From NCBI GenBank assembly GCA_013265495.1, contig MU057403.1, forward strand, positions 1 to 64,000: 64,000 nt of DNA, written 5' to 3'. The DNA is from Vicugna vicugna. Taxonomy: Eukaryota. The notes beneath the pieces are model-generated. The model was not told where the DNA came from. It saw only the letters and a list, made by a program, of their open reading frames with translations, and made no database searches. This document shows positions 3,676-42,856 of this stretch, one piece after another (position 1 is the first letter of the stretch; each line of letters opens with the position of its first letter). The translations under genes and the position numbers were made by a program.

Positions 3676-4302
3676 NNNNNNNNNNNNNNNNNNNNNNNNN
3701 NNNNNNNNNNNNNNNNNNNNNNNNNNNNNNNNNNNNNNNNNNNNNNNNNNNNNNNNNNNNNNNNNNNNNNNNNNNNNNNNNNNNNNNNNNNNNNNNNNNN
3801 NNNNNNNNNNNNNNNNNNNNNNNNNNNNNNNNNNNNNNNNNNNNNNNNNNNNNNNNNNNNNNNNNNNNNNNNNNNNNNNNNNNNNNNNNNNNNNNNNNNN
3901 NNNNNNNNNNNNNNNNNNNNNNNNNNNNNNNNNNNNNNNNNNNNNNNNNNNNNNNNNNNNNNNNNNNNNNNNNNNNNNNNNNNNNNNNNNNNNNNNNNNN
4001 NNNNNNNNNNNNNNNNNNNNNNNNNNNNNNNNNNNNNNNNNNNNNNNNNNNNNNNNNNNNNNNNNNNNNNNNNNNNNNNNNNNNNNNNNNNNNNNNNNNN
4101 NNNNNNNNNNNNNNNNNNNNNNNNNNNNNNNNNNNNNNNNNNNNNNNNNNNNNNNNNNNNNNNNNNNNNNNNNNNNNNNNNNNNNNNNNNNNNNNNNNNN
4201 NNNNNNNNNNNNNNNNNNNNNNNNNNNNNNNNNNNNNNNNNNNNNNNNNNNNNNNNNNNNNNNNNNNNNNNNNNNNNNNNNNNNNNNNNNNNNNNNNNNN
4301 NN
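3676..4302. other. Assembly gap (627 N)
   Basis: Run of N. Confidence 1.
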
Positions 4303-4900
4303 GATGGGAGAAGACGGGCTCAGCCAGGGAAGCCCCGCGACTGGCCAGTGCCCCCCGCCCCGCCGCCTCCCCGCGACCCGGCGGCGGGGAGCCCGCCCGC
4401 CGAAAGCGAAACCGAGGAAGCGCCACGTCGGAGGCGGGGGTGACATCAGCCCGCCGACGTCCGGCGCCGTCCTTCCGGGGTCAGCGGCGGAGGCGGGGCG
4501 GAGGCGGGCTGGGGACTGGCTGAGGCTCCGGTGGGTAGGTGGGCTCAGCCCGAGGGGACTACGGGTCGGCGTTGGGCTCAGCGGGCTCGAACAAAGGCCT
4601 CTCGGGCAGGGACGCGGCGCGGCGCCTCCTGCGGGTAGCTGGGCGGCCGGCCGCGGCTTCCCGGCCCGCCAGTGCCCTCCCCGCGCGGTCCCCGTCGGCT
4701 TCTCCTCGGATCCCCGCGGCCAGCGCCGCGGTGCGGGGCCCGGCGCAGCGGCACCTGCTGCTGGGGGACCCCGCGGCCCGCCCGGGTGCTCGTGATGGGG
4801 CTGATCTTCGCCAAACTGTGGAGCCTCTTCTGTAACCAAGGTAAGAAGGATGGAGCTGCCCAACGGCTGGCAGCGGAGGGAGTGGGTCTGGCCGCCGAAG
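4303..4900 (+). promoter_or_regulatory. ARL5B: CpG island / promoter and 5' UTR of ARL5B
   Basis: Very GC- and CpG-rich, GC boxes (GGGGCGGAGG), directly upstream of the ARL5B ATG. Confidence 0.85.
4795..4840 (+). CDS. ARL5B: ARL5B coding exon 1 (MGLIFAKLWSLFCNQ); no downstream exons found in the window
   Basis: Peptide matches the recalled ARL5B N-terminus (ARL5A starts MGILFTRIW); 46-nt coding part followed by a canonical AAG|GTAAGA donor. Confidence 0.9.
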
Positions 4901-7544
4901 GGGACAGCTCGGGAGGCAGGGCTCTCTGTGGACACTAGCGTTCTGAGACGCAGAGAAGGGACTTAGTCAAGAGGGTTGGGTAAAAACTCAGTATTTTAGG
5001 CTGGGAGTAGATGCTGGAGAGACGTGATGACGGGGAGAAATGGAGAGGCAGAAAAGGGGCATTTGGTCTCCCAAGAGCCAAACCAAGAATTTGGGGATTT
5101 TAGTGAAGGAAAGCGGAAAGCACCTAATGATACCGGGAGGCACTTGGAGGGCCTTTTCCGTCTCTCGTTAAGCATCCTAAGTGTCCTGCCCGAGGATAAA
5201 TGTCTATCCCCAAATCTATCAACTTTTAAAACTAGTGCTGCTTTGTTTTCTGCCCTGCTCTTTAAGCCCGTGCGCCTTCACGTTCTCTTGTTTCGCCTGC
5301 TCACCAAGGGCTCGGGAATATGTTGTCCTGTAGAGATTCACGGGTTTCCTGGAAATCTTCATTGCAAACTGATTATTCCTCTCTTCAGTGCTGGAAAACT
5401 GAATGCTTTTGGTTCCATGTACTATGTTGCTTGTCCATAACTAGTCTAGAACTGGTTCTGAGACATCTAAAACTTGCAAGACCAAAGGGCCAAGAAGTTG
5501 TAAAACCTGTTCTGAGTCAGAGTGAATCAGATGTGATGCCTTCTGAAGAGAGAAAATTTACCTATACAAAAAGGGCCAGCAATAGGTAAAGTTTTAGGCA
5601 TTCTTTTAACAGAATGTTTTTTCAGGAATTGAAGCCAGTTTAAAAACTCAACTAGTTTCATTTTGCATTTAATGCCAAGGCCTAAAAAAAGGCAGTGTTT
5701 TATGGCCAATTTGTTATTGCTAATATGGTGCGGGGTTTTTTTCCTGGACTTAATAAGTCATGAAGAGAATGAAATGGCTTTAGCTCACTTGTGCCGTAGA
5801 TTGATAAGAATACTAAAATAGCCTTTTTTCAAGGTTAATAAAGATAGATACATACACATATACATTGCTTGCCTTCCTTCCCTGACCACTCTTAACCACC
5901 CCGACACTCACTCTCCCTGTCTTTACCATTTTTCTGAGTAACAGTTATCCCTGTCATCATATAAGCTTGTTTGTTTACTTGTCTTTTTATTTCAATAGAA
6001 ACTCACTTGAGGCATGAACTTTGCCTTACTACCTGTTGTAGCCCCAATACAAAAAACTTTCAATTTTTTGTTTTGTTCAACATAAAAATTTTGTGTCGAA
6101 GTAACACAGACATTCTTTTTAAAAAGTTATGTAATGTTAAAGTCTGAAAATGATGTATATTAGTCAAATCTCTTTAAATGCCTTACCCTTTTTTCCCTAG
6201 TATATACTTTGATATTTCTGGATAATGTGCATATATGGAAATTTTAAACAGTATAATTTGTCTTTTTTAAAAATTGATAAAAATCAACATATAATATTTT
6301 ATTTATTTCAGGTATACTAATTATTTCTTATAGCAGAACATAAAATACTTTGGCCCTTTTCCCTTATCACCCCTATATAGTATTTTGGCTTAATCCACAC
6401 TCTGTCTTTTCATTATTGTCACTGTAAAGTTTAGTTACTGCTGTGCTGCAGTGTTCCCCTTTTTCCTACACCTTAACCTTTTTTCGAGTAACTAATATTT
6501 CATTGCCTTAGTTTTCTTTGTATGTTTGGTTAAGTCATTTCATGCTATACAGAAGCTCTCCTCCAAGTTTGTCCACACACCTCCCTGCCTGGTCAGTGCT
6601 CCATCCTGCTCCAAATTGGACCTGTGCCCCTCTCCGTGCCTGGTGCACAGCTGTTCCGGACATGTCCTTGCTGTCATTCTAGGAATCTTCCTTCCTTTTC
6701 TCTTTTATTAGAACTTATGTTTTTCTTGCTTTACTCTTTGATGAAGCACATGCTTCAGACATTTCCTGCAGAGGTTTCCAAAGTGATCATTTTTCTGTAG
6801 TTTAAAATACTGAAAATATTTTGGTCTGTCTTCACTTTTGATTTATAATTGGGCTAGATACAGAATTCTGAGTTGGGAAAATGTCTCTTTCAGAATTTTG
6901 AAGATGTTGTCATTGTCCTCCAGCTTCTAGTATTGTTGTGAAGACCAGTGTTTTGCGATTTTTTTTCTTAGTCTTTCTAGTAGATTTTAGAATGTTTCAT
7001 TTATCCTTGGTGTTTTTAAATTTGAAAGAGTTGTGCCCTGTTATGTAATTTTTTGATTCATTGTGCTAGGCCTTTTGCACCTTTTTAACACAAAGTTACA
7101 TTTTTTTCCATTCTAGGAATTTTTTTTTTTAATATTTAGGATTTCTACTTTCCTGAGAATCTTGTTGGTCATATGGTACTAAATTGATTATCAGATATTC
7201 TTTTCCATTTTACTTTCACTTTTTTTTTAAAAAAAAGTAAGTTTCTGGGATATTTCCCTTGTCTTCCAAATCTTTTGAATATTTGGTTCAGCTATCTTAT
7301 TTTTAGTTTATAAATGCTTTTTTCTTTTTTCCTGTGTTTTAAAATTCTTGTGGCATTGCTTCATAGTGCTATGTCTTTTAAGTGTCTTAAGTTTTTTTTA
7401 CCCTTCTGTTTCTATTTTTATATTAGCTCTTCACTGGAAACTTTCCTTATAGATCTATTGGAAATAATTCTGGTGCATGAATATACTATGGCTTGTTTCT
7501 TCGTTTGCATCATAATAGGTTGTAGTAAGTGAAACTGTTAGATT

Positions 7545-9480
7545 TTTTTTTTATTGATTCAGTCACTCTGTGTCTTTAGATTGGAGAAGTTAGTCCATTT
7601 ACTTTAAAAAGTAATTATTGATAGGCATGAATTTACTATTGCCATTTTGTAATTGTTTTCTGACTTTTTAAAGTTCTTTTTTCTTTCTTTCTTCTTCTTC
7701 TTCTTCTTCTTCTTCTTCTTCTTCTTCTCCTTCTCCTTCTCCTTCTCCTTCTTTTTTTTTCTTCTTCTTTCCTCCTTCTTCTTCCTTCTTCCTTCTCCTT
7801 CTCCTTCCTTTTCTTTCTTCTTTCTTCTTATTGTATTCCTTTGTGATTTAACAACTTCCTACAATGGTTTGCTTAGATTCCTTTTTTTTTTTTGTCTTTT
7901 GTGTATCTAATACAGGTTTTTGCTTTGTGTTACCATGAAGAAGCTTATATAAAAATGGCTTTTATAAGCCTATTTTAAGCTGATAACAACTTAATTTAGA
8001 ATGCATACTAAAGCCCTACATTTTAAAATGCTCCTCGTTATTTTGATGTCACAATTTATATCTTCATCTTGTTTATCCCTTAGCAAATTTTGCAGTTAGT
8101 TATTCTTAATACTTTTATCTTTCAACCTTCATGCTAGATTTTTATATGATTTATTCATCATGATGACAACTATAAAGGATTCTGAATTTATGTTTACCTT
8201 TACCACTGCAATTTATACCTTCATATGTTTTCCTGTTACTAATTATTAGCCTTTTGTTTTAGCTTAAAGAAGTCTCTAACTTTTTTTGGCTTGGCCAGTT
8301 TAGTGGTCATGAACTTCTTCAGTTTTCCTTGTCTGGAAAACTTTTTCTCTCTCCTTAAATTCTGAAGAGCAACCTGCCTGGGTAGTGTTCTGGCTGATAG
8401 TGTTGTTTTTTGTTTGTTTGTTTGCTTTTCTGTTTGTTTTTTCCTTTCAACACTTGGAATATATAGTGCTATTTTCTTCAGCCTGCAAAGTTTCTTCTGA
8501 AAACTATGCTGATGGTTTTATGGGGGTTCTCTTGTATATAACGAGTTGTTTTTCTTTCACTGCTTTAAAGATTCTTCCCTTGTCTTTAACTTTTGACACG
8601 TTAATTATACTGTGTCTCAGTGTGCGTCTTGTTGAATTCTTCCTTTTTCGAATGTATTGGGCTTCTTGGATCTGTGTGTTTGTTTCTTTCCCCAAGTCAG
8701 GGAAATTTTCAGTTATTATTTTTTCAAACAAACTTTCTGCCTTCCCTCATATTTCTGTGACTCCCATATTGTGAATATGGTCCCCTTGATGTTGTTTAAG
8801 AAATCCCTTAATCTATCTTAATTAATCACACTTTCCATTCTTTTTTCTTTTTTCTCCCTCAGTTGCGTGAATTCCAGTGCCCTGTCTTTGGGTTTGCTGA
8901 TCTGTTTCTTCTGGTTCATCTATACTGCTGTTCAACACCTCAATTAAAAATTTCAGTTCAGTTATTACATTCTTCAGCATCATGTTTTCTGTTTGGTACT
9001 TTCTTATATTTTCTATCCTTTGTTGAAATTTCCACTCTGTTCATGAATTATTCTCATGAGCTCAGTGAGCATCTTTGTGACAATTAATTTTGGACTGTTC
9101 ATCAGATAAGTCACTTATTTCCATTTCTTAAGGTCTGTTTCTTGAGTTCTGTCTTTCACTTTTGTTTGAAACACATGACTCTATTTCTTCATCTTCCTTG
9201 ACTCTGTGTGTTTTCTGTGCATTAGATAAAGCAGTCACCACTCCCAGTCTTCCGAGAGTGGTCTCCTGCAGGAGATAAGCCTGTCACTCAGACCTGCCCT
9301 AGGTCTGCGTTTTTTCCCTAACCTTTGTGACTGCCCAAGTGCCTTCTTTATTCTTAATGGCTCCCCATAGTTGAATGTGTGCCAAGACTTTTCGGTGTCC
9401 AGAAGTGGGAGGATCTTAGCATCTAGATGCAGGCTGGTTGGAAGCTGATCCTTGTTTAGCAGCTTTTAAAATATGCAACC
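7545..9480 (-). mobile_element. Degraded L1: 5' UTR part, ORF1, inter-ORF region and ORF2 start
   Basis: Minus-strand ORF 8504-8731 'FEKIITENFPDLGKETNTQIQEAQ' is L1 ORF1p-like. Confidence 0.85.
7688..7830. repeat. (TTC)n/(TCC)n simple repeat inside L1
   Basis: Directly visible. Confidence 0.95.
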
Positions 9481-9860
9481 AGGGAGTGAGAGGGAGCTAC
9501 ACAATGTGGGGACTTTTAGGTCATGTAAGGATGTTGGTTTGCTCTGAGTAAGATGGGAAGTCTTTGGGGGAGTTTGAGTGGAGACAGGGTTTTGGGATCT
9601 GGCTTCAGTAGGATCTGTCAGCTTCTGTATTAAGAATAGACCCTAGGGAGTCAAGGTGGGGGACACAGAGATCTAATTAGGGAGCTGTTGCAATAATCTA
9701 GGAAGGAGGTCATGTATATGGGGAGAAGTGATTAGCTTCTGGATGTACTTTGAAGGTACAGCCAACAGTTACGCTCATGGACTAGGTGAGGGATGTGAGG
9801 GAATGAGAGGAATGAAGACAACAAGGTAGTTTTTGACCTAGGCAACGGGAAGAATGGAGC
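9480..9860 (-). mobile_element. L2 fragment
   Basis: L2-like purine-rich sequence 'ggtcatgtaaggatgttggtttgctctgagtaagatgggaag'. Confidence 0.55.
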
Positions 9861-9964
9861 CCAGCTAACAGAAAGCAATGACCATGCTTATCTCACTGAA
9901 AGCTCTGGCTGTTGGTTGGGTCTCTTTCCTTTTACTTCAGGCCATAACACTCTACTGATACCTG

Positions 9965-10880
9965 TTTTTTTTTTTAATTAGTAAACTGAAAAGAGCAGTT
10001 TAAGGTTAATAGTTAATAGGAAAATTGAGCATAAAGTACAAAGATTTCCCTTATACTCCTGCCCCCAACCCCAACACAACTTCCCCCATTATCAACACCT
10101 CCCACCGGATGGTACATTTGTTACAGTTGAAGAACCTACCTTGACACATCATCATCTCCCAAAGTCTGTAGCTTACATTAGAGTTCTCTCCTGGTGCTGT
10201 ACACGCTATGGGTCTTGACAAATGTATGAAGACGTGTATCCACCCTTGTAGTATTCTACTGTACAGCTTCACTGCCCTGAAAATCCTCTGTCCTCTTCCT
10301 GTTCATCCCTTCCCCACCTCTAATGCCTGGCAACCACTGATCTATTTATCATCTCCATAGTTTTGCCTTTTCTAGAATGTCATAGAGTGTTAATCGTACA
10401 GTATGTAGTTTTTTCAGGTTGACTTTTTACACTTAGCAGTATGCATTTAAGGATCATCCGTGTCTCTTCATGGCTTGTCAGCTCTTTTTAGTGCTGAATA
10501 AAAAAACATGTTGTCTGAATGTCCCACGGTGTATTTGTCTATTCATTTATGGAAGGACACCTTGGTTGCTTCCAAGTTTTGGCAGTTATGAATAAAGATG
10601 CTGTAAACATCCACATGCAGTGTGTGTGGATATACATTTTTGACTTCTCTGGATCAACACCAAGGGGTGCAGTTGCTGGATTGTATGGTTAAGAGTATGC
10701 TTATTCTTGTAAGAAACCACTGAACTGTCTTCCACAGTGGCTGCACCATCTTGCATTCCCACCAGAAATGAGTAAGTGTTCCTGTTGCTCTACACCCCCA
10801 GCAATATTTGATGCTGTCAGTATTTTGGATTTTGGCCATGCCATTCTAATAGATGTGTAGTGGCATCTTATTGTTTCAAC
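9965..10880 (-). mobile_element. L1 (L1MC/MB-like) 3' end
   Basis: Poly-T tail at the left; minus-strand peptide 'GTLTHFWWECKMVQPLWKTV' resembles the ORF2 C-terminus. Confidence 0.85.
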
Positions 10881-12479
10881 TGATTCTATTTTCAATGATT
10901 GCTAAGAATTCTTTTTTAAAAATAAATTGGCCTTTTGTAAGATCTCAACCTCCTGGCTCATTAAGACCTTTGGCACTTTGTCTCTGATTAGACAAATCAA
11001 CCAACAAGGCCATTGCTAGTAGCCAAAGTCATCTGAGACGCAGAGCCTGTCTTTATGCAGCTTTAGTCCACTTGGCTCTCTCCCTGCTCTGGTCATTTGT
11101 CTCTGGGAATTGCCCTATAACACCCCCTTCATCCTGCTAGTTTCTAAATAAAAATAAGCCCTTTAACATGACTTGATGTTCCCACTCTATTCTTAGTCTA
11201 TTAGAATGCATGAACATTTCCAGCATCATATTTAGGCTAATAAGTTGCAAATGTACATCTCCAATCCTAACCTTTCACCTAAATTCCAGCCCTGTATTTC
11301 TAGGTACCTGGAGAATCCCCCCATCTTGAATATCTTGCAATCATTTCTTTTACTGTCTCTCAAATTCTGTGTATGTCTCTCTACGTCCCTCGGTGTCTCT
11401 TACGTTGCTGCTCTCTGGAGTCTGCAGGGGCAAGTCTTGCATAATTACTCTGTCCTTCAGATGCTACTTTGAGGACTTAGCAGGGCTCATCACAATATAG
11501 CCACTGGCAGGCCAGTTCTCAACCCTCTGCTGCTCACACCCTAATCTAGACCAATACCTCTTACCTGGAGTTGTGCAACAGCGTCCTAACTGGCATCTCA
11601 CCTCCACTTTTCCTCCTTCATGGTGCATCCTCCATGGAGTAGCCAGAGCAGTTTCTCTTCTGCTATAGCCTTATTTGGGTATAACTGACATTTAAGGTTG
11701 TGTAAGTAAATGTGTACAGCATGTTGATTTGGTACACTAATACTGCAGCATGAGCGATTTTTTTTTCTTTTAGCAATTTTTTATTTGAAAAATTTCAATC
11801 ACATACAGAAGTAGAGTAGAGGGTATGTTGACCCCCATAAACTAATTACCCAGATTCAATAGTTATTAAGGTTTTGCTACATTTTTAAAATCATCTCCTT
11901 TTTTTTTTTTCTGAACTGTTCCAAAGCATATCCAAGACATCATATCAGTTCACTCTTACACTCTTCAGTGTGCATCTTCACAGAAGGGAACACAGCCTTA
12001 CATTACTGCAATAATACTGTTGCACTTATCAATATTATAATAATTTCTTGGTAATATCTAATACCCAGTCTATATTCAAACTTTGAAAAATATAGAGATG
12101 TAATTTTCATAACATAAAATTCACTCTTTTAATGTACAATTCAGTGGCTTGTAGGATATTCAAAAAGCTTTGCAACCATAACCAGTATCTAATTCTAGCA
12201 CATTTTTATCACTGTCAAAAGACACTCATATTCATTAACAGTCACTCCCATTTTCTCCTGCCCCAAATCACCCAATTCCTCCCTCTAGATTTTGCCTCTT
12301 CTAAGAACTATGTGGTCTTTTGTGACTGGCTTCTTTCATTTAGCTTAATGTTTTCAAAGTTCATTCACATTGTAGCATGTATGGGTACTTTAGTCCTTTT
12401 CATGACTGACTTATAGCCCATGGAATGGCTACATCACATTCTGTTTATCTGTTTAGCAGTTGATGGGCAGCATGAGTGA

Positions 12480-13000
12480 TTTTTAGAATAAGATCCTATC
12501 ACGTTCTTGCTCAATAGTCTCTGGTGCTTGTCCCATCAATATAAGAATAAAATCCAAACTTCTCACCATGACTTAAAGCCCCTGTCTTGTCTGACATCTA
12601 CCTCCCCTCCCCAAACTAATCTCTTATCTTGGGTCTCTCATTCCTAAGTTCCAAACATGCAAATTTAGTTCCCACCTCCGGGCCTTTCCACTTGCTGGCC
12701 CCTCTTCCTGGAAAGCCTTCCGCAAAGGCCCCCCTCGCTAGCTCATTCTCACCATTGAAGTCTCAGGTTGGCATTGACCTCCCGAGGTAGTGTGGTTACC
12801 ACCTCCCCTGTCAGTCCCCCTTCACTCTCTGTCCTATTTCCTAGTTGTATTTTCTTTGTAGCATTTACAAATTATCATTGGAAGTTATCTTCTTTGCTTA
12901 CGTGTTTGCTATCTCTCTCTCTCCAGTAGAAGGTACGTTTCTTGAGGACAGATCCCTGTCTTACCTCCCTACTGGAGCCTAGAGCTTGGAACACGGTGGA
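12480..13000 (+). mobile_element. L2 3' fragment
   Basis: 'agaataaaatccaaacttctcaccatg...gggcctttccacttgctg...ccctcttcctggaa' typical of L2. Confidence 0.6.
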
Positions 13001-14109
13001 AAAATTGAATTTGAAACTCAACACCCCCCTCCGAATAATTCATCATCCTATTACTTGCATCTACTTCCAAATGATTTTCTTTCTCAGGCCCCATTTTTCC
13101 AGCCCCCTATGTAAATAAACTATTACGTTTATTTACTCTTTATGTCCTCCCTTGTATTTAGTACAACCCTCAAAGCAGGTCCTGTTGATCCTCCTTTCCT
13201 GTGATTCTTCAGGTTCCTTCTTCCCTTGCCTCGTCATGGCCCACATCATTGATCTACCTTTCCACCTTTAGTCTTTCTGTATTTTTCTAATGTTCTAGAA
13301 AGTGATGCCAGATGGTTGTTTCTAAATACTTGTTTTCAAATTTTATGACCAAAGAGGGTACATTATTTTGACGGATCGGAGGCAGGTACAAAAATGCCAC
13401 TCTGTATAACTGATGCTAAGTAGAAGCATCAGGAAGTGAAGGTGAGTAGATATTAGAGCAAACTAGTCAACTCTGAGGTATTATGTGTTTATTTTGCCAT
13501 TGAAACAGTGTCCTTGAACTTCATCCAAAAACCACCGATTTAAATTTAAACTAGTAGAAGATGTGTCCTTGGTAATCTGGTAGTATTTAATTTTGAAATA
13601 ACAATTACATACACCCATATCAAGCCTTTAAAGAAAAAAAACTTAGCAAGGGAAATCTGGTTTCTATGTCTTGCATTGCCCAAGGGGGCAATTACTTTAA
13701 ATCCAGTGGCCATTTCCAGCAATTGAGATGGAAATGGTCTTTGACTTGGGGAAAGATAACACACGAATGTTTCTAGCTTGCTGCACAAGTGCTTGTGACA
13801 ATGCAGGGTTTCCTTTTTGTAGCTCACTAGATGAACTATGATTTGGTCTCTTGTTGATCCTTCACTCAACAAGGACCTGCTGTCCATATGTGCATGCTCC
13901 CAAGTTTTGATATAAGCAGATTTCCCAAGAAAAATGAACTGGTATTATCATTTATAAATCAGTCAGGCTCTTGCAAAGTTGGTTTGTGCGACATGAACTC
14001 CTAAATCAGTTCACACTTGATCGCTTGTATACAGGGATAAATTTGAGATGCTGGATATTCAATCTGTATTTGGTCCAGACACTCTGTGAGATGTTCCTTT
14101 GCCTGCCCA

Positions 14110-14460
14110 CAATGACTCATGTTCTCCGACATTCACACCCTGGTGTAGTTGTGTCCCTCACTGCCTCTGAGAGTGGCCATGTGTCTAATCTTGGCCATCA
14201 GAACATCAGCAAATGAAACTTGAGTGGAGGCTTGCTTGGCACTTACAATTTGAGATGTGTCCTCTTGGAACTTTCCTTTTTAGTATCCAGCTTCTATGCT
14301 GTGTCCAAGCAACAATATGGTGAGGTCCACATGGAGAAGAACCGAGAACCTTGGATATAACCCCATCTGAACTTCCAGCCATCAGTTGGCACCAGCTCTC
14401 AGCCATGTGAACAAGGCCATTTGGAACTTCTCACCATCCCAGTGTCCCAGCCGCAACACA
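14110..14460. mobile_element. MaLR (MLT1-like) LTR fragment
   Basis: 'gctgtgtccaagc...ggtccacatggagaagaaccgag...cagccatgtgaacaaggcc' MLT1-like motifs. Confidence 0.55.
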
Positions 14461-15242
14461 GAATTTTCCCATCTCAGAAAACCTGTGGCGTTCATATCCT
14501 AATTTCAATTGCATATACTCCTTGACCTACAAATAACCATAACAGACATCATAGCAAACATTTGCTATCTTGGTGCAGCATTTGCTATGCACCAAGCGCA
14601 CAACTAGGTTTACTATTGTGCGATCTCAATGCTGTGGCAGTATAAGTGTCCAAAGATGTTATTTTTTCCCCCAATCACCAATTTAAACCATAATTTGTCA
14701 AATTTCCCTTTCCCATCCCTATGACAAATTCTTGGCTACAGTAATTCATTCAATGGTGTTCATATCCTAATTTCAATTGCATATACTCCTTGACCTACAA
14801 ATCACCATAACAGACATCATAGCAAACATTTATGCAGCATTTGCTATGCACCAAGCACACAACTAGGTTTACTATTGTGCGATCTCAATGCTGTGGCAGT
14901 ATAAGTGTCCAAAGATGTTATTTTTTCCCCCAATCACCAATTTAAACCATAATTTGTCAAATTTCCCTTTCCCATCCCTATGACAAATTCTTGGCTACAG
15001 TAATTCATTCAGCAAATGCTTACTGAGTTCCCACTGAGTTTGGAACACAGATGATACAGTGGTGAACAAAACAAGCAGAAATCCCTGCTCTCGTAGAGGT
15101 GGAAAATATAAATAACAAAGTAAGTGTATCAGTTAGCTTAGCTATTTAGGTGGTGGGAACAACTTTAAAAAGCAGTGAGAGTTTATATTGTATGGCCTCT
15201 GTAGGTTGGATGCTTTGGAAACCAGACCCTCAGGCTGCAGCC

Positions 15243-16345
15243 TTTTTTTTTTTTTTTTAATTGCAGCATAGTTGATTTACAATGTTAGTTTAGGTGATTC
15301 AGTTATACATATACATACATACATTTTTTTTTCTTTTCAGATTCTTTTCCATTATATGTTATTATGAGAAATTGAATATAGTGCCCTGTGCTCTACAGTA
15401 GGTCCTTGTTTATCTATTTTATATTTAGTACTGTGTATCTGTTAATCTCCAACTCCTAATTTATCCCTCACCACCCTTTCCCCTTTGGTAATATGGTTTG
15501 TTTTCTATGCCTGTGAGTTTTGTGTTTGGTTTGTAAATAGAATTTGTATCATTTTTTTAAGACCCCACATATAAGTGATAACATATGATATTTAGCCTTC
15601 TCTGACTAACTTCACTCAATATGATAATCTCTAGGTCCATCCATGTTGCTGCAAATTACATTCTTTCACCCTTTTTTATGGCTCATATTTCATATGTATC
15701 CCATATATACCACATCTTTTTTATCCAATCATCTGATGATGGACATTTAGGTTGTTTCCATGTCTTGACTGTTACCAGTACCGCTGCTGTGAACATTGGG
15801 GTGTGTGTGTCTTTCCAAATTAGAGTTTTCTCCAGATGTAAGCCTAGGAGTGGGATTGCTGGGTCATATGGTAACTCTATTTTTAGTTTTTTAAGGAACC
15901 TCCATACTGTCCTTCATAGTGGCTGCACCAATTTACATTCCCACCAACAGTGTAAGAGGGTTCCTTTTTCTCCACAACAGTTATCATTTGTAGACTTTTT
16001 TATGATGGCCATTCTGACTGGTGTGATACCTCATTGTAGTTTTGATTAACTGTTACCAGTACCGCTGCTGTGAACATTGGGGTGTGTGTGTCTTTCCAAA
16101 TTAGAGTTTTCTCCAGATGTAAGCCTAGGAGTGGGATTGCTGGGTCATATGGTAACTCTATTTTTAGTTTTTTAAGGAACCTCCATACTGTCCTTCATAG
16201 TGGCTGCACCAATTTACATTCCCACCAACAGTGTAAGAGGGTTCCTTTTTCTCCACAACAGTTATCATTTGTAGACTTTTTTATGATGGCCATTCTGACT
16301 GGTGTGATACCTCATTGTAGTTTTGATTTGCATTTCTCTAATAAT
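15243..16345 (-). mobile_element. L1 3' end with an internal 281-bp tandem duplication
   Basis: Poly-T tail at 15243, typical antisense L1 3' UTR and ORF2 C-terminal sequence. Confidence 0.9.
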
Positions 16346-18447
16346 TTTCAGCTTTTAATGTATGCAAATATATATATAGTCATATGAGACTGCAAGCGTA
16401 AGACCTGCTAGTCACCAGCGCCAGGTGGCCTGGAGGCGTCCTCTAGGTGGAAGTTGCAAAAACTGGGGCTCCGGACAAGGGCATAAACTCCTATGTGAGA
16501 GACACTGGGGATCTGAAGCAAGGCAGAGGGAGAGCACAAACACTGTACTCTGCTCCATGCCCTGAGAGCCCCTCTGTGCATACCTTGATATGTGCCAATC
16601 AGAAAGTTTGCCTCTGAGGCCAAACCCAAGGTCTCTTTCTCAGAAAGACTCAAGGAGTGTGCAGTCTGCTGTCTGAGCAGTGCCCTGTGGGTGGTAGTCT
16701 GCCAAGAACAGGGTCTCCATTGTTCCATTCTCATGGGATCCAGGATTGCAAGCACCCCATGGCCTCCATAGCCACGTGATCAAGGGGCATCCCCTGGGAA
16801 AAAGTTGCAAAAACTAGGTCACCAGGCATGTGTCAGAGTTTCCCTTTAGGAGTGGTGTTCTGGATCATGGCAGAAGGAAAGTGGGCTGATGGTGCTGGCA
16901 GGAGCAGAGCAGAGGTGGAACATAACATTGCACCCACTGGGAAGAAGAAAAAAATTTTAAAGGCCTAGCATGATAGGAAAAAAAAAGATGGTGCCCACAA
17001 GCCGGAGGAAGGGAGACGGGGAGTGTAAAACTGGTGGTGCCTGCTAGGAAGGGAGTGAGGGGAAAGATGGCACAGGAAGATGGTGCCTGCTGGCCCCTGT
17101 CCCTGGAGAATATCCCAGCAGACCCCTAAATGTGTGTTACATTAGATGCCTGGCCCTAATTAAGGCTGATGCTTAAAATTAGCAAATGATTCTATCTTAC
17201 AAAAAGTCTGGGCATGACTGACCGTGTTTTCATTGGACCCTGGGGGAGAGAGTCCAAGCACCTGAGCTCTGTCAGCGCTATTTCTCATATCACTGTGGAT
17301 TTGGGGGGTCTTGTGGACAGAAACATACCATAAAAAGCAGGCTTGTTGGGGAGCTTGAATATTTTAAATGTAGTTATATTTCTCTGTCTATTCCCAATAG
17401 ATTTGTGCACCATCTACTTTAGAAAGTTAGTGGTTTTGGTCAATCAGGATACTGAGTCTGGTTAGCAAGTGAGGAAGCTGATAATCAATAATCATGATTG
17501 GAATGCCCACCATTTATTTACTTTGAACCAGAAAATTTATGCATAATAGTTAGTATTCTCACAACTCAGGTGAAGAAAACAAAAAAAGAAACCAACCAAT
17601 TAATCCAAGGATACATAGCTAGTAAGTGGTAGGAAGTGTGCCAAGGGTCTACTCAGCCTTCAGAAACATCCATTATGTTAACTTCTGGCTCCAACATCTT
17701 GCACAAAAATACTGTGTATTTCAGTTGTGATTTTGGAATTTTGTCACGCAGGAAAAGACGGTACTGACTCTCTAGGAATTTTAAAAATAAGTAGATAAGA
17801 AATGTGACAGAAACAAATGAGGCTATATAAGAATGTAGCAAATAAACAGTTTTCCAGAACAGTGTAATGTTAACATGGCATATTTCCCCTATTAAATTTT
17901 AACAAGAATATATGTGTGTTTGTAGACAAAATGTTTTAATTTAATTCTACAAGACAGCTGGAGATTGCTTGCATTTGTTGTTTACTCAAAATATTTGTTT
18001 AGAATTAGTCAATTGATTTAATATGTAACAGCAGTTAGTGTGAACAAGGGAAAAAAGTGCAATTGATGGGGAAGAAGATATTATTGTATAATGTAACTGT
18101 TGTGTTGATAGAATGAGTTTGTGTTCTTCAGTAAAGATGTTTAGCATTAACTCAGATTTGGAATATAGTGGAAAAAAATGTACTGTCAGTTGTATACTCA
18201 GACCAAAATACCTTCATAACAGAAGTTTGTTTTTTTTCCTTCACGTTTTGAAAATTTTTAAGTCACATAACCTGATACGGTAAATACTGTATTATATTAC
18301 AGTGAGTCATGGAATGTATTTTCTTCAATTAAATTAATACTTATTTTTACAAATTCTGGTCTGGTATAAATTTGGTGTGTGATGCAGTTGTCTCTCAGAT
18401 ACATAAAGCAATCCCTTCTTCATCTGCTGTGAAGCCCACTTGGGGAC

Positions 18448-18576
18448 TTTTTTGGGGGGAGTTGTGGTGAGGTAATTAGGTTTATTTATTTATTTAATGC
18501 TAGGTGCCTACCTAGCATGCACAAAAGCTTGTGCATGCTAGGTAGGCACCCTACCACTGAGCTATACCCTTCCCCC
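18448..18576 (-). mobile_element. Vic-1-like tRNA-derived SINE with an internal fold-back rearrangement
   Basis: 'ctaccactgagctatacccttcccc' is the reverse complement of the SINE head at 28831; (TTTA)n tail. Confidence 0.8.
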
Positions 18577-21500
18577 ATCCAGGGACATTTTCATTTCAGA
18601 TATTATACTTGGCAACTCTAGAATTTCATTTTGGTTCTGCTTGCCCTTCTCTCCCTCCTCCTCTTTCTCCTTCTCCTTCTCTTCCTCCTCCTCCTCCTTC
18701 TCTTTAAAATATAGTCTCTATTTCTTTTCTGAGATTCTCCATCTGTTCACTCATTATGCCAATCTTTCACTTTACTTTTTTGGAACTTATTTATAACATT
18801 TGCTTTACAATTCATACCTGCTAATTCCAACATCTTGGTCATTCAGAATCTATTTCTACTGACTGATTTCTCTCTTAAGTATGGATTACATTTCCTTGTT
18901 TCTTCCATATATAGTAATTTTTAAAAATCATATGCAGGACACTGTAGATGATACACTGTAGACACTTTAGAATCCCTTACATTCCATGAAGTGTGTTGAT
19001 TTGAGGAATAGCAAGCAGTCAGATTACTGAATGATCTACTTTACCTTGGGGATGCTTGGTTTAACATGTATTGAGGGCAGGTCTTTTTTGGTTTTGCCCC
19101 TTACTCCCAGGGTGAAACTCCTCAGTCCTGGGACACAGATTTTTCTTGTAAGGGAAAGCCCTTCTATAGTTTCAAAGTAACTGAGATGTTTACTGAACTC
19201 CTCTAACCGGGTGGGTTTCAAAATTTTAACATGTTTGCTTTGCAGTGGGAAGAGCTGGAATCTCTGCTCAACTCTTTCAGTTTCATTATCTTTTTCTTTC
19301 TGCTAGACTTGTGCAGTCTGCCCAGCATATGCACAGTTTTGAGTCAGCTGACAGTTGGAGAGGAGTTTATGTTCAGATTTGGGGGCTTCCTCCTCTCTAG
19401 CTCCCTCTGTTCCAGGATTTCCACCATCAACATCCTACCACTCAATCATCCCATACTCCACCTTCTACCCTTCTGTCCAGTAAGATGGTGGCTTTCTTGT
19501 AGACTCTTTGCCACCCCACACTGCATGAAGCTTTCACCCAATTTCTCCCCAGTGCTTTCAAATCTTACAAACAATTATTTCAGAGTTCATAATTGCTATA
19601 TGAAAATTAAGGCTGGTACAAGCTACTCCACTCTTACACTAAACTAACATGACAAACCTTCAGGGAGCATTCTAATTGGTATTGGCAGGTGTGTTTGGTG
19701 GATGCAACATAGTATTGAGAATCTGTTCATGGCACCTTGCTTCATTGTGTCATGTATCCTCACATCACCCTCAAAGTAGGGAGAAAAGAGGAATCGTTAC
19801 TCTTTCTGTTGTAAAAAAGTAAAAACCCATAATAAAGAGAAGGGGAGAAAAATGCTTATGATCACAGTGTTTTAGCCAATGAGTTGGGAGTAGACCCTAA
19901 ACCTTCAGGTTGATTTTGTTACCATTGGGCAAGGTTCAAATCTGTAAAGCTATCAAAGCTAGAAAGACTTACAGAAATGTGCATATCCTCAGTTACAGCA
20001 AAACTTCACTCTTTCAGACTCTACATTTTAACAACTGAAAGTTCAAATGTGACTCAATTTTGCCTTATCTATAAAAGGACGTTTCTCTACTGAAGAATGC
20101 TTAGAATGAGTAAAAGAATATAGCAAAGTAGTTGGCTTTGAAAGTGGTGTGCAGAAATCAGTACTCTCCTAAGCTCAAAACGAACAAACAAAAAAGAAAT
20201 GGAAGTATCAAGTAGGAGAGATTTAACACCCACTCAGTCACAACAACAAACCCAAAACACTTAACACCTAGGAATGAACTTAATGGGGAAGTATTCAGGG
20301 AATAGTCAATATTTTTATGCTTCAGAGCATGCAATATTTTGAAATATTTATACTATCTAAATTAATCAACAAACCAAAAAACATTCCAATCAATTAGAAG
20401 AGAGGGAGCAGTTAGGAAGACTTGATAGATTAGGCTGCAGGTTATTAAGAGGTTCAAGGAGTCACCAGGGCCATTTTGGAAAAGAACACAAATGATGAGC
20501 AGTATCTCTTTATAATACACTTTAATATACAGTATAATGAATATACAGTGTGTTACAATATACTACAGTGATTAAAACAGTGTGGCAACATGAAAGGTAC
20601 ACTGGTTAAAACTGTGGTAATTAGAATACTTACAGTAATGGAAAGGAATAAAGAGGCCAGCACGCATAAAAATTTAGTGTATAGTGAAAGTATTTCAAAT
20701 CAGTGCCCCATTGTATTTGGACAAATGGAAAGCCATTAAACAGAACTGGATTTATACTTTATTCTTTATACCAAAATAAATTCCAGCTCTATAGAAAATG
20801 TCAATGCTTGAAATAGAACGACAAGGTATTACAAGAAAACACGCATCAGTATATTTATGAATATGGAAGTCTTCCAGTGGAGGAGAAAGCATCTAACCTT
20901 GCTTCTGTTAGGGAGAAAAATAGAATCAGAAATATGAGTTTCTCTATTTGGAATGGAAATCAGCTTGTAATCAAAAACTACTTGCTAGTTGAGGAATAGT
21001 CTCACAATGGAAGCCTTTTCTTTTCTCTTTTCTCAGAAATGACTCTGAGCAAATTCTTGACACTCAGAGAGAAAAAGCTAATAATATTCCTAGCATGGCT
21101 GTTATAAATATATAAACCTCATCCTTGTTGTATTAAAAGTCTGCCCTACTGAAAAAAAAAAAACACTAGGATTAATGTTCAATTTCAAGGGACTCACACT
21201 TTAAAAACTATAAAACAGACCTTAAAAAACAATTATTCTGTACTTTTGAGGATGTGAATCCAAACACCAAAACTGTTTATTGCATGTAGGTAAAAATCTG
21301 TTCTAATTAGATTCAGTTTCACTTATTTTAATCTTTTATTTAAAAATTCAAAAGTAAATCCAACAGAGCTGGGATTTATTATCAACCAGGCATCAAGACG
21401 CTATTATATTAATGAGGCACTGGAAGTTGAAGTCAAATAAGAAAATCATTCATGGTCCTGGGGACAGAACAACACTGTGCATGAGGACAAGCACTTCTTT

Positions 21501-23779
21501 GCTGATTGAATGGAGACCAAGAGCACATCGAATTCAACAACTGAAAGATACAAAAGCATTTTCTTGTTCACCAGGTCAGGGGATGGAGAGAACCCCAAGT
21601 CCAATGCTACTTCTTTCCTTTTATCTTGTAAGGAGTTTTTATCCGAGCTATTTTTGGCCCATGGAACTCTTCCCATCACCCCTGGTCTGTGTAACACAAT
21701 CAGTGCACACAGGCCAACGTCATGTCAGACAGAGTACAATGGCCAGTGTGTGCTGAGCTTTAAGGCTTCAGTTTGGGAATCAAAATTTCACGTGGGTCTT
21801 GACTTGGAAAACCATGTTCTAAACATGTCCGTAAATGGTCCGAGCGTGATTCATCCCCACTGGTAAAAACAGAAACCTTCCCGGAACAATGGGGGATGAA
21901 TTAAACAGCTTCTGCCAAATAAATAACGAAATAAACAAATTAGAAGTCCCATGAATCTAAATCTGAGTCTTCAAAAATCATTAACCATGAAGCACAAGTT
22001 TTCATTTCTCTCTGTATTCTGTTCCTCCTATTAGCCTGTGTGTTGAGGACGTTCTTTACCAAGTTACTCTGCTGGTCTGCCAGTTTCTCTTATTATAGTC
22101 AAGCAAGAAGAAAGACAAATACTTTTTCCCCCTAGCTATAAATATTTTTCATTCTTCTGCTGATGAGAGTCAAATGCATATGAAATAAGCTAGGTAAAAT
22201 GTGGAACCTTTCTATTTTTCCCCTCTCCACGGCAAGGCACTTTCTCCCAGTTGAAACCTTCTTTTTTTTTTTTTTTGGTCAAGTTCAAATCAAAACTAGA
22301 GTGGCCCTAAGACTCTGCCTGGCTCCTAGTTTGGGCTGTGCTGGATGAGAAGCTATTTTTACTGCCGGCTCAGGGCCATCTGGTTTCTCTGGGATGGTTC
22401 ACAATGGTATGTTTCAGTGCAGCTGGTCACATGTGTGCTTTTCCCAAGTCAGGGCTGGTGACCTGGAGAGGAATGTGTGCAGACTCTCTCGGCACCTCCA
22501 ACCTCGTCATATCCTTCTGCATTAGTTGATACGCTGGGTTCCTCATGGCTAAGTGTTGGGTGAAGTGGCCACTGGCAGGCACTTCAGCTCTGTTTTGCAT
22601 GTTAGTGTTGGAGCTCTGGAGGTAGAGCCTGTGAACTGGGGTTCCCAAGCCCTCTGGTGAATTGTCTGGCATCTACCTTGATGGTGGGGCCGGGCACCTC
22701 CTGCTACTTCTTCTGCTTCTCCATTGGAAGCAGTGTGCCAGGTGAACTTAAGGAACTGAGTGCCTTGTCACAGTGGAAAAAAAAAAAAATGCAATCGGTG
22801 GGCAATTCAAAAAAATGCCTTGAAAGGCAGACTTACGAGAAAGAAGAAATCATCTTACTGTCCTCCACCAGCTGCGGCCAGGGCTCTCCCTCCTCTGGGG
22901 GAACATGTGTGCCTGGGAGCTGGGATGGTGGTCACCGAGCACACCAGGAAAGCCCTTCTAATGATCTGGACTCCTTTGTGGTCTTTTTCTTTTAAAAAAT
23001 TGCAGCGGGAAGTGTTGCCTGTCACCATTTAAGAAGAGTAAGTTTCTTTACCTTATCAACATCTTTCAATTCAATTAAAATTTATAGGGTGCCAGGAGGA
23101 CCTGCCCTAGCCTTCTCCCCCTGACTTCTCACATTCGCAGATGAGACCAGGGGAGAAAAGAAGCCACATTCATTTATAGCAGCCCCTCTCTGCAAGACGC
23201 AGTGTTCTTTTTATTCTGCACATTGATTCAGGTCCTAAGGTCTTTTGGTGACAATACTTGTGGGCAGTGCAGAAAAAGTCCCAATAATTAATACCAGATT
23301 ATATGAATAAAAATGAGATTTTCACAGACCCAAGAACATTTCTCTGCATTACCACATCCCCCAAAGTCTTTGGCGTTCAGCTCCAGAATGACTGCTCCCA
23401 TGCAGAACCTGCCTTGGAGACATGGAGGAACATGATCCTCTCCAGTTAATTTCATTGCTACAGAGTGGCTTTTCCCTTTAAGGGTTTTCTTAACACTTTA
23501 CAAACAATTCCTTATCCGCTAGATACATTCACTTGCTAATGCTTCTACTACTTAATCAACATGAGAAATAAAAAATACTGAGATAGTCGCCGAAACAATA
23601 CAAAATTATTTGTCAATCAGGGCGCTTCTATTTTCTTCTAACACATTAAATAATAAGACCCAGTGACGTGTTTAATGTTACCATAAATTTGAAAAACTAA
23701 TAAACCTAGGTATAACTCATTTCCCCATTCAAGTTCACAGGCATCCAGAACTCCATCCACTGGCTTGTAGACCCCAGGG

Positions 23780-23935
23780 TTAATGTAATCCTCATCATAA
23801 CCCTATGAAATAGGTATCACCATTTTTATTCCTTTTTACAGATGAGGAAAGTGAGGCACAGAGAGGCTAAGTGAGTCCACTAAGCTCCTAAATGATGGAG
23901 CTGAGATCTGGCTGCCTCCTAAATTCTTAACCAAC
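23780..23935. mobile_element. MIR
   Basis: MIR core 'tttacagatgaggaaagtgaggcacagagagg'. Confidence 0.8.
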
Positions 23936-24323
23936 ACGCAGTTCCTGGCTTAGATTAGGGCTGACCTCAGGGTCAACATGTTCACGCTCACTGCCAGCTC
24001 ACAAACAGGAGGAGCCAATCAGAAAGAAGAGGGAACTGAAAGTTCCTACTCACGGATAAATACCTTTCAAGCTGCAGAAGGGTTGCAGAAAGGCTTCCAT
24101 AAGTGTGACCATTTTAATTTAAAAAAAACAAACAAACAACATTCTCCCTGTCTTTAAATGCTGTGTGCAGAATGCCGTATGATTTGTAACTATTGCACCA
24201 TAATGCATTGCCCACTAGAATGGAATATTGGAAGGTTTGTATGGATTTTGCTTTACTGATGTCAGAATCCACTGTTCTCTTGGGAACATGCCCTGCTCCC
24301 TGATCCCGTTCTGTTGCACTAAT

Positions 24324-24581
24324 CAGACTGCAAGCTCCTTGCCTTCCATTTGTCCTCCGTGGGCACCCGGTTTTCTCCAGCAAGGTTTTGATGAGGCTTC
24401 TTGAGTGGTTCAGGGGTGGGGGCTCGTCCGCAGAGAGAAGCCGCACTTCGGTCAGTTGCCTGGGACTCCAAGTGCCGCCGCTGCCCGGAGTCGAGGTTTC
24501 TCCTGTCTCAGCAGGGGGAACAAGGCTTAGGAGAAGGGACAGGGGCACCCAGAATATGGAAAGCTTTGTCCAGAAGCACAT
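24324..24581 (-). pseudogene. SLC39A12: SLC39A12 (ZIP12) first coding exon (exon 2), 86 codons, with disrupted splice donor; later exons not found
   Basis: [18 protein letters not shown]...[24 protein letters not shown] matches the recalled ZIP12 N-terminus; acceptor ccacag| at 24668 (86 nt of 5' UTR in the exon); exon end reads CTG|ATTAGT. Gene identity is firmer than pseudogene status. Confidence 0.75.
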
Positions 24582-26130
24582 TTCCACTCTTCCTTTACCC
24601 CAAATCTGTCTTTGGTGGTGGTGCGTGGCTTGGTGTTCACAGTGTAAACTTGGAACTGGAGGAATTTCTGTGGCAAGGAAAAAAATTAAATAAAAGCTTT
24701 AATTATGGTGCCTGAAACAGGTTTGAAAGGATTCATTAATTGGGTGGCTAAGCTGATTTGCAATGACAAGCTGTTTCTGAACAACAGGGGGGTGGGGTCT
24801 GTAGATGGATTATAACTCCAACTGGCAGGAAAGGATGCTGGCTGTGACTTTCAAACTGTGGAACAGCCAAGAGGCTTGTTATATTGCCTCCCTCTGAACT
24901 GAACAGAGAGTCAAAAATGAGGAAGAACACATTTCAGTATTTCTTCTGAAGGTGCTACAAGTCGGGGCCTGGGGGCAGGAAACACCCTCATTTTATCCCT
25001 CTCTCAAGTAGACCTCCCAGGGATCTGTGATCCTCATCAGCGAAGTCAGTAAATAAAAATAATCAGAAAGTAAAGTTTAATAAATTACAGATAACATGTT
25101 GAGTTAGAAGGTTTTAGATAAGGAAAGGATGAAAAGAACAGAGTAACATCCAGAAACTACTGCTTCATTTTCCCTTTTTCAGTTGATAAACAGAGTATGA
25201 ACTAGCTTGGAAAAACAAGGGAGTTTCAAGACCGCACGAGCCATGATAAATCCACATGTTCAGTGCTCACTAAAGACGTGAAAGAACAGCTTTGGGGCCA
25301 ATCAACTTTCTGGAAAAAAATTAATCTTGTCAACTGATTGCTTAAGGAATGCAAAATGTTAACAGCATCTCATGTCGGATCTTGGCCCAGAGACCAGCTC
25401 AGAATGACTGAGGGTTAGTAACAAAAATACTGGGATTACTTTCATGGTTTAGGAAAAGTGAGACAGAGAGAGAGTTGAAGATTCTTATGTTAGCATTTTT
25501 TAAAAATGACAGAAGAGGATACAAACATTTCTAAACACATTGCTTCCCTTCAGAAGAAAGATAAATGTTTATCCAGAGCTCTGTGGCCTTTTAAGTCTCA
25601 GAGAGTATTTCGTGGTTACAAAGTCCTCTGTTTTTAAAATTCCTTGACTGTGCACTGGGAGCGGGAGAGGATTATTTCAGCCCAGAACAGTTTCCTGTTG
25701 CTATAGAGAGTAACAATGAAGGTGGATAAAAGTGAGAAGTTTCTGTCTGGCCGATTTTCAGGAAAATCAAATTTAAGTCGCTAATGAACCTGACTTTTTA
25801 GATCGATATTTAGCAATTTTCTTAGAATTCTAAGAAAAATCTTAGAATTTCTTATGGTCACTTGACTTTTAGAGGACAGTTCTAGGGCAAAAGAGTTCAC
25901 CTTGCAGAATGGTAAAGGTTTTAGTGTTGGATCAAGATTTTTTTTTTTTTGAACCAGATGATTCTGTGATAACTCTTATCCACACTCAAACCAAGGATTT
26001 GTTGAAAGAGAGTTTCATTAGAACGTTATTTATTTTATAAGGGGCAGAGATTTAAATAATTTAAGGCGTTCGTAAATTCAGAAATAGATGTTTCCAAACA
26101 AAGTATTTGCTGGAGGAATACAGCTCTTAC

Positions 26131-34899: not shown

Positions 34900-35520
34900 A
34901 GCAAACATGTGTAGAAAGCTTGAAATATCAGCTCTAGATAGGATTCAACACCTAACAAAGAGAAGACACACTCTTTTCAAGGAAGTGTGGAATCTATAAA
35001 AACTGACAATGTACCTCAATGAGTTCTACGGAAGCATCATTATATGTATATAATCATGCATATTAATGATGTATAGTATATTCTATTATTATATAAAAAA
35101 TTAGAAATCAATATTAAATATTTTTACAAATCCCATGTATCTGGAAACCAAAGAACATACTAATAAATATGCTTAGATTAAAAAGAAGGATGAAAGAGAG
35201 ATTACAAAATACTTAGCAGAGGACTAACAATGACACTGCATATCAAAACCTGGCAGCTTCAGGCCCAGACCGTTTCATAGGTAAGTTCTTCAGATTTTTG
35301 AGAAATAAATAATATGTTTCCATAATCTGACCCTAATCGCATATTAAGAAAAAATTATAACTAATTAAGCTTTATCTCAGGAAGGCAATAATGGCTCAAT
35401 GTCAAAAAATAATTTGTCAATGTAGTTTTTAACATCTCTAGAATAAAGGAGAACAACATTATCATTATCTTGATTTCTGCAGAAAACACTCAATAAAATC
35501 CAATACCTATACTTTAGTGA
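34900..35520 (+). mobile_element. Degraded L1 ORF2 fragments
   Basis: A-rich, L1-like motifs 'aaattagaaatcaat', 'catatcaaaacctgg', 'ctcaataaaatccaatacc'. Confidence 0.5.
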
Positions 35521-35524
35521 GCCT

Positions 35525-38500: not shown

Positions 38501-38745
38501 GTAGGGACACTGACCAAAGCCAAGTGTGTTTCTTTAGGGCCAGTTACTCAGGCCCATGGGTTCTTCTCAAGGCTAGTGACCCAGGCGCAGGCTGTATATT
38601 CGGGGCCAGTGACCGAAGCCAGGATTTTCTCTCTAGAGCCACTGATCCAAGCCAAGTGTGTGTCTTTAGGGCCGGTGATTATGGCCAAAAGTGCATCTTA
38701 ACGGCCAGTAACCCGGACCCAGTGTTGCCATCAGCGCCAGTGAAC
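35525..38745 (+). repeat. Satellite, ~33-bp unit CCAGTGACCCAGGCCCAGGGTGTGTCTTCAGGG (left arm)
   Basis: Many degenerate tandem units; recurring 11-aa PVTQAQ/ASDPGPG peptides in the ORF track. Confidence 0.95.
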
Positions 38746-42794: not shown

Positions 42795-42856
42795 CACAAC
42801 ATTGTAAACTGACTGTATATATATATATATATATATACATACACACACACATACAG
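42795..42856 (+). mobile_element. L1 terminal sequence plus (TA)n(CA)n tail, right part of the split L1
   Basis: 'cacaacattgtaaactgact' matches the L1 terminus at ~29242-29258; followed by the TSD. Confidence 0.75.

Follow-up and report, generated by a model that had tools for sequence, protein, structure and literature searches.

Converging front ends of ARL5B and SLC39A12 in Vicugna vicugna: the probable scar of an old rearrangement at the native locus

In the first 64,000 nucleotides of contig MU057403.1 of Vicugna vicugna (assembly GCA_013265495.1; the whole stretch analyzed, hereafter "the window"), the front ends of two genes, ARL5B and SLC39A12 (the gene for ZIP12), point at each other across 19,483 bp free of N. 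How did these orphan 5' fragments come to converge, and what does this mean for SLC39A12? In human, MRC1, SLC39A12 and ARL5B lie on one strand, an orientation that is ancestral, with ARL5B several hundred kilobases from the other two; here, segments of ARL5B and SLC39A12 are adjacent on opposite strands. A preliminary description of this stretch had given the human order as MRC1, SLC39A12, CACNB2, NSUN6, ARL5B, with strands and distances that belong to general background. For this neighborhood, PMC4222902 lists the ancestral gene order. We take the arrangement to be genuine and to be the trace of an old rearrangement, most likely at the native locus: SLC39A12 would have been broken in intron 2, within the native MRC1-SLC39A12 locus, and the front end of ARL5B set against it, a reading to which we give a probability of about 60%.

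The two fragments and the gap next to them are as follows.

3676..4302, no strand: assembly gap of 627 N, the only N run in the window, immediately 5' of the ARL5B promoter, so that the interval does not include it

4303..4900, plus strand: CpG island of the ARL5B promoter (GC 0.72–0.78, CpG observed/expected 0.79–1.02)

4795..4840, plus strand: ARL5B coding exon 1, intact, with a canonical GT donor (15/15 residues against Mustela ARL5B, P0023)

24322..24323, minus strand: dead donor of SLC39A12 exon 2, AT instead of GT in the window sequence

24324..24667, minus strand: SLC39A12 exon 2, the first coding exon (coding sequence 24581..24324, of 86 codons, with a one-codon deletion and an intact acceptor)

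The geometry reported earlier, with ARL5B exon 1 on the opposite strand some 19.5 kb from SLC39A12 exon 2 and no N between them, is thus confirmed. So is the claim that neither ARL5B exon 2 nor SLC39A12 exon 3 lies in the interval: tblastn over the whole 64 kb, with full-length ZIP12 from four species and with one ARL5B protein, returned no other exon of either gene (next-best E-values 0.17 for the ZIP12 and 0.43 for the ARL5B queries), and a scan of P0023 over the window in 15-residue pieces matched exon 1 at 15/15 and the other 14 pieces at 8/15 or less. SLC39A12 exon 2 is recognized by tblastn at 71–76% identity to the ZIP12 proteins of horse, seal and bat (E 1e-24 to 4e-28). A donor-like site at about 25890–25920 on the minus strand, about 1.2 kb upstream of this exon, may end the non-coding exon 1 of SLC39A12, as we presume from the human spacing. 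Across the gap, on the upstream side of the ARL5B promoter and some 3 kb away from it, lies a G-rich 19-bp minisatellite of about 61 copies (151–1257). A SINE type in the window fits a South American camelid.

The AT donor, an addition to the preliminary description, affects the exon that holds the start codon in human SLC39A12 (PMC4222902). An AT-AC intron of the U12 type was considered and ruled out: the site does not match the U12 AT-AC donor consensus, and other mammals have GT. When the frame reading through the donor was searched against 1.84 billion representatives, 10 matches were returned: the frame P0001, eight more frames that run on past exon 2, and a repeat protein with no relation to them. 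The first residue past exon 2 is valine, as a GT donor encodes, in 8/8 of the other mammal-type frames, and isoleucine in the window, in P0001 and in a further frame, P0025. The latter two, from three and six public contigs (nine in total), are camelid-like and 94–95% identical to the window frame. Because the AT-type residue is common to the window and both of these frames, we take the lesion to be old and not an assembly error. The window differs from the two frames at 4/86 exon residues and at 4 or 5/68 residues of read-through intron (4/68 for P0001). This suggests ~2% DNA divergence between the window and the two frames, which would represent either another camelid lineage or a paralogue, and the similar exon and intron rates fit, on small numbers, a neutral drift of exon 2.

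A faster rate in exon 2 is, by contrast, not clear. Its mean distance to nine outgroups is 0.295, compared to 0.31 for pig, 0.22 for hippo and 0.22–0.27 over hippo, ruminants and whales, with pig and warthog equally diverged; among 23 columns invariant in 17 intact species, three have changed, against 0–4 in leave-one-out controls. Past the dead donor, exon 2 reads on in a 155-codon frame from an ATG (within 24117–24698, minus strand), a frame also open in P0001 and P0025 (154 residues). Transcription of this frame, if it occurs, could give rise to a short orphan peptide whose N-terminus is hydrophobic, for which the comparison of exon and intron residues gave no signal of selection.

The sequence beyond SLC39A12 bears on whether this is the native locus or a copy.

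63718–63569, 57701–57588, 57068–56904, 55805–55764 and 54860–54610, minus strand: last five MRC1 exons, all with AG/GT sites and joined in a single frame that stays open as far as the stop

35516..42799, no strand: diverged 7-kb palindrome between MRC1 and SLC39A12, with opposed 33-bp minisatellite arms around a CpG island

We take the five exons to be those of MRC1, a name that rests on the preliminary description and on general knowledge. In simulations that use assumed indel rates, the chance of finding no lesion in them is 0.38, 0.14, 0.06 and 0.009 at 1, 2, 3 and 5% neutral divergence. PMC12127551 (Data S1/S2) counts MRC1 among the 1:1 orthologues of 11 species, seven of which are camelids; three of the seven camelid annotations were lifted from alpaca, which leaves four that are independent. 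Intact exons together with this 1:1 status favor a native locus over a decayed duplicate. Among the gene fragments of the block, only SLC39A12 exon 2 is damaged: no lesion is seen in the five MRC1 exons or in ARL5B exon 1, and the disabling lesion, i.e., the AT donor plus the missing exon 3, sits beside an intact MRC1 end.

The foremost rival, which we consider unlikely, is a partial segmental duplicate: a mosaic of the MRC1 3' end, SLC39A12 exons 1–2 and ARL5B exon 1 in ordinary decay, with the parent genes intact elsewhere. The preliminary description had thought a duplicate probable; we retain it as a rival only. It would agree with the 1:1 annotation of SLC39A12 in all camelids (PMC12127551), with the pseudogene-rich duplicated blocks of alpaca (PMC13751797), and with the minisatellite at 1–1257 and the satellite palindrome within the window. 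Two dromedary identifiers each for MRC1 and TMEM236 (PMC8222267) point the same way, but gene names in that table are unreliable, an ARL5A identifier being labeled CHPF in its file 10. A duplicate is also hard to square with MRC1 exons that are free of lesions although the neighboring donor lesion is old, with MRC1 being 1:1 (PMC12127551), and with the matches listed in our searches, which include neither a camelid-like exon 2 frame with a GT donor nor a camelid full-length ZIP12.

The CpG island of the palindrome (35516–42799) holds CCGGAAG-type motifs, and the palindrome itself could mark a duplicon insertion or break scaffolds. Just downstream of MRC1 lies a 135-bp direct repeat with 83% identity (52567–52701 and 53158–53290). 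A 6/8 match at 46678 to an NSUN6 motif was discarded, being at about chance level.

No camelid full-length ZIP12 was found among the 19 exon-2 matches listed of 257 candidates, nor among the 157 listed of 342 members in 12 clusters; with pig residues 88–360 as query, none was among the best 120 of 545 matches, down to ~81% identity, a set that covers pig, ruminants, hippo, whales, bats, carnivores, horse, rhino, primates and rodents. Since ZIP12 is only 86–90% identical between groups (pig, hippo, cetacean, ruminant), a camelid protein should appear as its own visible representative. Forms starting from the next methionine (557–558 residues) would nonetheless be hidden, as their local scores of 410–430 bits fall short of the 499 bits at which the best 120 matches end. 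SLC39A12 does figure in the 1:1 list of PMC12127551, with RefSeq transcripts for alpaca, Bactrian camel, dromedary and wild camel; the four models are XM_031676392.1, XM_010967955.1, XM_010981962.2 and XM_032473705.1. They may be intact, as a duplicate would have it, N-terminally truncated, or corrected (model correction is described as practice in PMC12127551), and the presence of one in all four species suggests that the 3' frame is still largely open.

Other annotation data are less telling. The 1:1 list of PMC12127551 comprises 11,861 genes and lacks ARL5B, CACNB2, NSUN6 and TMEM236, as it does many others; a look-up in the list data by six human accession numbers found nothing. The accession numbers of MRC1 and SLC39A12 are 983 apart in Bactrian camel and 11,021 apart in dromedary, a spacing that hints at separate scaffolds but that satellite breaks explain under any model. 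In the rows listed of PMC8222267, SLC39A1, 10, 11, 13 and 14 are named and SLC39A12 and ARL5B are not; ARL5A is missing by name too, and we give this little weight. The truncated front end of SLC39A12, with its dead donor, probably means that camels and llamas are without a normal ZIP12.

The favored rearrangement would have its break in SLC39A12 intron 2 and would have brought in the promoter and exon 1 of ARL5B facing the other way. With exon 3 no longer next to it, exon 2, which supplies the start codon and the hydrophobic N-terminus, would have lost its donor and would now drift, leaving camelids without a conventional full-length ZIP12. The annotated camelid SLC39A12 models would then be built on the 3' exons, with a late start or a borrowed first exon. 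We can picture this event in three forms. In the first, possible though with the odds against it, a single inversion joined SLC39A12 intron 2 to ARL5B intron 1 and cut both genes; a second junction is then predicted, at which SLC39A12 exons 3–13 and ARL5B exons 2–6 diverge without promoters. The ARL5B promoter region is head-to-head with NSUN6 in other mammals. In the second form, which is rather doubtful, an inverted duplicate of this ARL5B/NSUN6 promoter block was inserted in SLC39A12 intron 2; ARL5B would be intact at home, and the promoter in the NSUN6 direction could drive SLC39A12 exons 3–13, which would explain the surviving models. In the least likely variant, to which we give very little credit, ARL5B intron 1 received the MRC1-SLC39A12 5' block, and ARL5B is still spliced across it.

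The constraint on ARL5B bears on these forms: ARL5B falls in GISMO-mis decile 1, i.e., among the most missense-constrained genes, and SLC39A12 in decile 8 (PMC13754592). Such constraint, with an undecayed exon 1, makes a loss of ARL5B less likely a priori, although its paralogue ARL5A acts at this compartment too (PMC6829661) and is listed as 1:1 for camelids (PMC12127551).

The junction itself can be approached through the DNA between the fragments.

4841..14300, plus strand: arm probably derived from ARL5B intron 1, as the skew suggests; T-rich on the plus strand, with old pieces of long interspersed nuclear elements (LINEs) inside

8507..8746, minus strand: remnant of L1 open reading frame 1 (ORF1; PF02994, E 5.7e-15) in an antisense L1 at ~7.5–9.4 kb

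14300..16500, no strand: probable junction zone from cumulative T-A skew

14486..15011, no strand: tandem duplication of ~258 bp, the copies differing by 3 substitutions and ~9 bp of indel

15765..16328, no strand: 281-bp tandem duplication, essentially perfect (99.6%), within an old L1 3' end; other L1 copies in the window are 68–73% alike

16500..24323, minus strand: arm probably derived from SLC39A12 intron 2 (tblastn, skew)

Transcription-linked strand skew is well established, and two convergent introns are expected to give a switch such as the one seen here. With LINE pieces masked by eye, which left 11,705 bases, cumulative T-minus-A climbs to a peak at 14304 and then drops, an excursion reached by 1 of 2000 block shuffles; old repeats that escaped the mask may add to it. 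Of the inversion between two introns proposed in the preliminary description, the inversion-type geometry is supported, with a skew switch at ~14–16 kb; its placement within a segmental duplicate is not favored. A search near the break for inverted repeats or microhomology returned only a 48-bp hairpin (18503–18550); a partner repeat would sit at the other breakpoint. Nor did a Pfam scan of 145 of the 154 frames of at least 45 codons (nine low-complexity or duplicated frames were omitted) indicate a third gene in the interval: only the L1 ORF1 piece passed the cut-off, and the test is weak, as two MRC1 exon control frames also gave no family.

The two tandem duplications, likewise absent from the preliminary description, raise the risk of a misjoin, since they resemble contig joins. 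The shorter may be a recent duplication or an allele-join artefact, and the 281-bp one is likely a contig-overlap artefact. A misassembly, i.e., two real loci joined at 14–16.5 kb, would account for two near-perfect tandem duplications of a type typical of contig joins at the very place where the skew switches, in an assembly that contains gaps. Words of 10001–20000 are present at 0.70–0.74 in 14 of 24 listed runs, from eight studies (one run may be the source sample), which shows that this DNA exists but says nothing on whether its two halves adjoin; RNA runs carry 0.05–0.27 of the same words, which is not evidence of transcription. However, each duplication is an overlap of sequence specific to the locus, as true neighbors would give (99.6% identity within the duplication compared to 68–73% for other L1 copies). 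A misjoin, moreover, would neither make a dead donor common to other contigs nor explain the want of a camelid ZIP12 with exon 2 among the matches listed. Misassembly, named as the alternative in the preliminary description, thus cannot alone explain the donor common to other camelid-like contigs, and we regard it as quite improbable. More improbable still is local decay without a large inversion, in which a different first exon took over from exon 2 and the ARL5B piece arrived later by a small, unrelated duplicative transposition: an undecayed ARL5B exon 1 beside an old SLC39A12 donor lesion would allow for different ages, but fifteen codons date the ARL5B piece poorly, and exon 3 must still be >24 kb away or removed.

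Several observations weigh against a rearrangement at the native locus, or against parts of that reading. Exon 2 is no more diverged than that of pig (0.295 vs 0.31), so far as these distances suggest. The presence of camelid proteins in the collection searched is not confirmed by a control, and the four annotated camelids have a SLC39A12 RefSeq model, which may be intact. The dromedary kidney table of PMC8222267 holds two identifiers each for MRC1, TMEM236 and CACNB2 (and for SLC39A1). Neither SLC39A12 nor ARL5B is on the 412-gene erosion list of PMC7498332, whose authors state that their method misses synteny-breaking rearrangements. The skew switch adjoins two probable assembly joins, and the junction is known from the assembly alone, not from reads or contigs. 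Lastly, for an inversion that cuts both genes in particular, ARL5B exon 1 is undecayed and its gene lies in the most constrained decile.

If SLC39A12 was indeed broken at its native locus, the consequences could extend to physiology. According to PMC4222902, almost all of the vertebrates examined have ZIP12, and Xenopus requires it for neurulation. Deletion of ZIP12 in rat attenuates hypoxic pulmonary hypertension (PMC6504829, citing Zhao et al. 2015), including muscularization and right ventricular hypertrophy in chronic hypoxia, and llamas at altitude show neither muscularization of pulmonary arterioles nor right ventricular hypertrophy; the review reports both points and, in the passages cited, does not link them. 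We tentatively propose, with the balance still somewhat against it, that all living camelids are natural ZIP12 knockouts or N-terminal truncation mutants, possibly for ARL5B too, owing to a single rearrangement that became fixed in the ancestor common to them and is masked by RefSeq models of the 3' exons. If so, the break would be a candidate genetic pre-adaptation behind the resistance of camelids to pulmonary hypertension at high altitude, and a candidate cause of the thin-walled pulmonary vessels of llamas, the llama-rat link being our own. A lesion shared with lowland camels would predate Andean life and be a pre-adaptation at most. A mammal family without normal ZIP12 would also test the dispensability of the gene and bear on the safety of blocking ZIP12, and the case would represent a gene disruption overlooked by 1:1 orthologue tables and erosion screens. 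Were the locus a duplicate after all, it would be ordinary. No report of a broken SLC39A12 or ARL5B in camelids was found in a literature search that left most subscription journals outside its scope, and the available parts of the supplements of PMC6598621 and PMC9508118 and of the text of PMC6371769 contain no relevant term.

The locus can be compared to known systems. The partial segmental-duplicate pseudogenes of alpaca (PMC13751797) likewise consist of orphan exons with their introns and have satellites nearby, but they are multi-copy with an intact parent, whereas here the matches listed hold neither extra copies nor an intact parent exon 2, and the MRC1 end is intact. Lineage-specific gene erosion in camelids, e.g., of CETP and AADACL2 in alpaca and Bactrian camel (PMC7498332), is similar in that the lesion is common to camelid-like sequences and the drift of the exon looks neutral; erosion proceeds in place, however, while here exons would have been separated by rearrangement, and a RefSeq coding model persists. 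Inversions that break genes are known as such, and one of them lies in this very syntenic block: in Ossabaw pigs, a ~2 Mb inversion on chromosome 10 interrupts CUBN, with NSUN6, MRC1 and CACNB2 in or beside it (PMC8455653). The two cases share a conserved neighborhood and a breakpoint inside a gene. The pig inversion is at the level of a breed, confirmed by long reads, and breaks CUBN; the camelid break lies in SLC39A12 (perhaps also ARL5B), appears shared between camelid lineages, and is known from one breakpoint in an assembly alone. Finally, the rat Slc39a12 deletion (via PMC6504829) is an experimental allele with a measured phenotype, unlike the camelid case, which is known from sequence and in which a truncated product may persist; what the two would have in common is the loss of full-length ZIP12.

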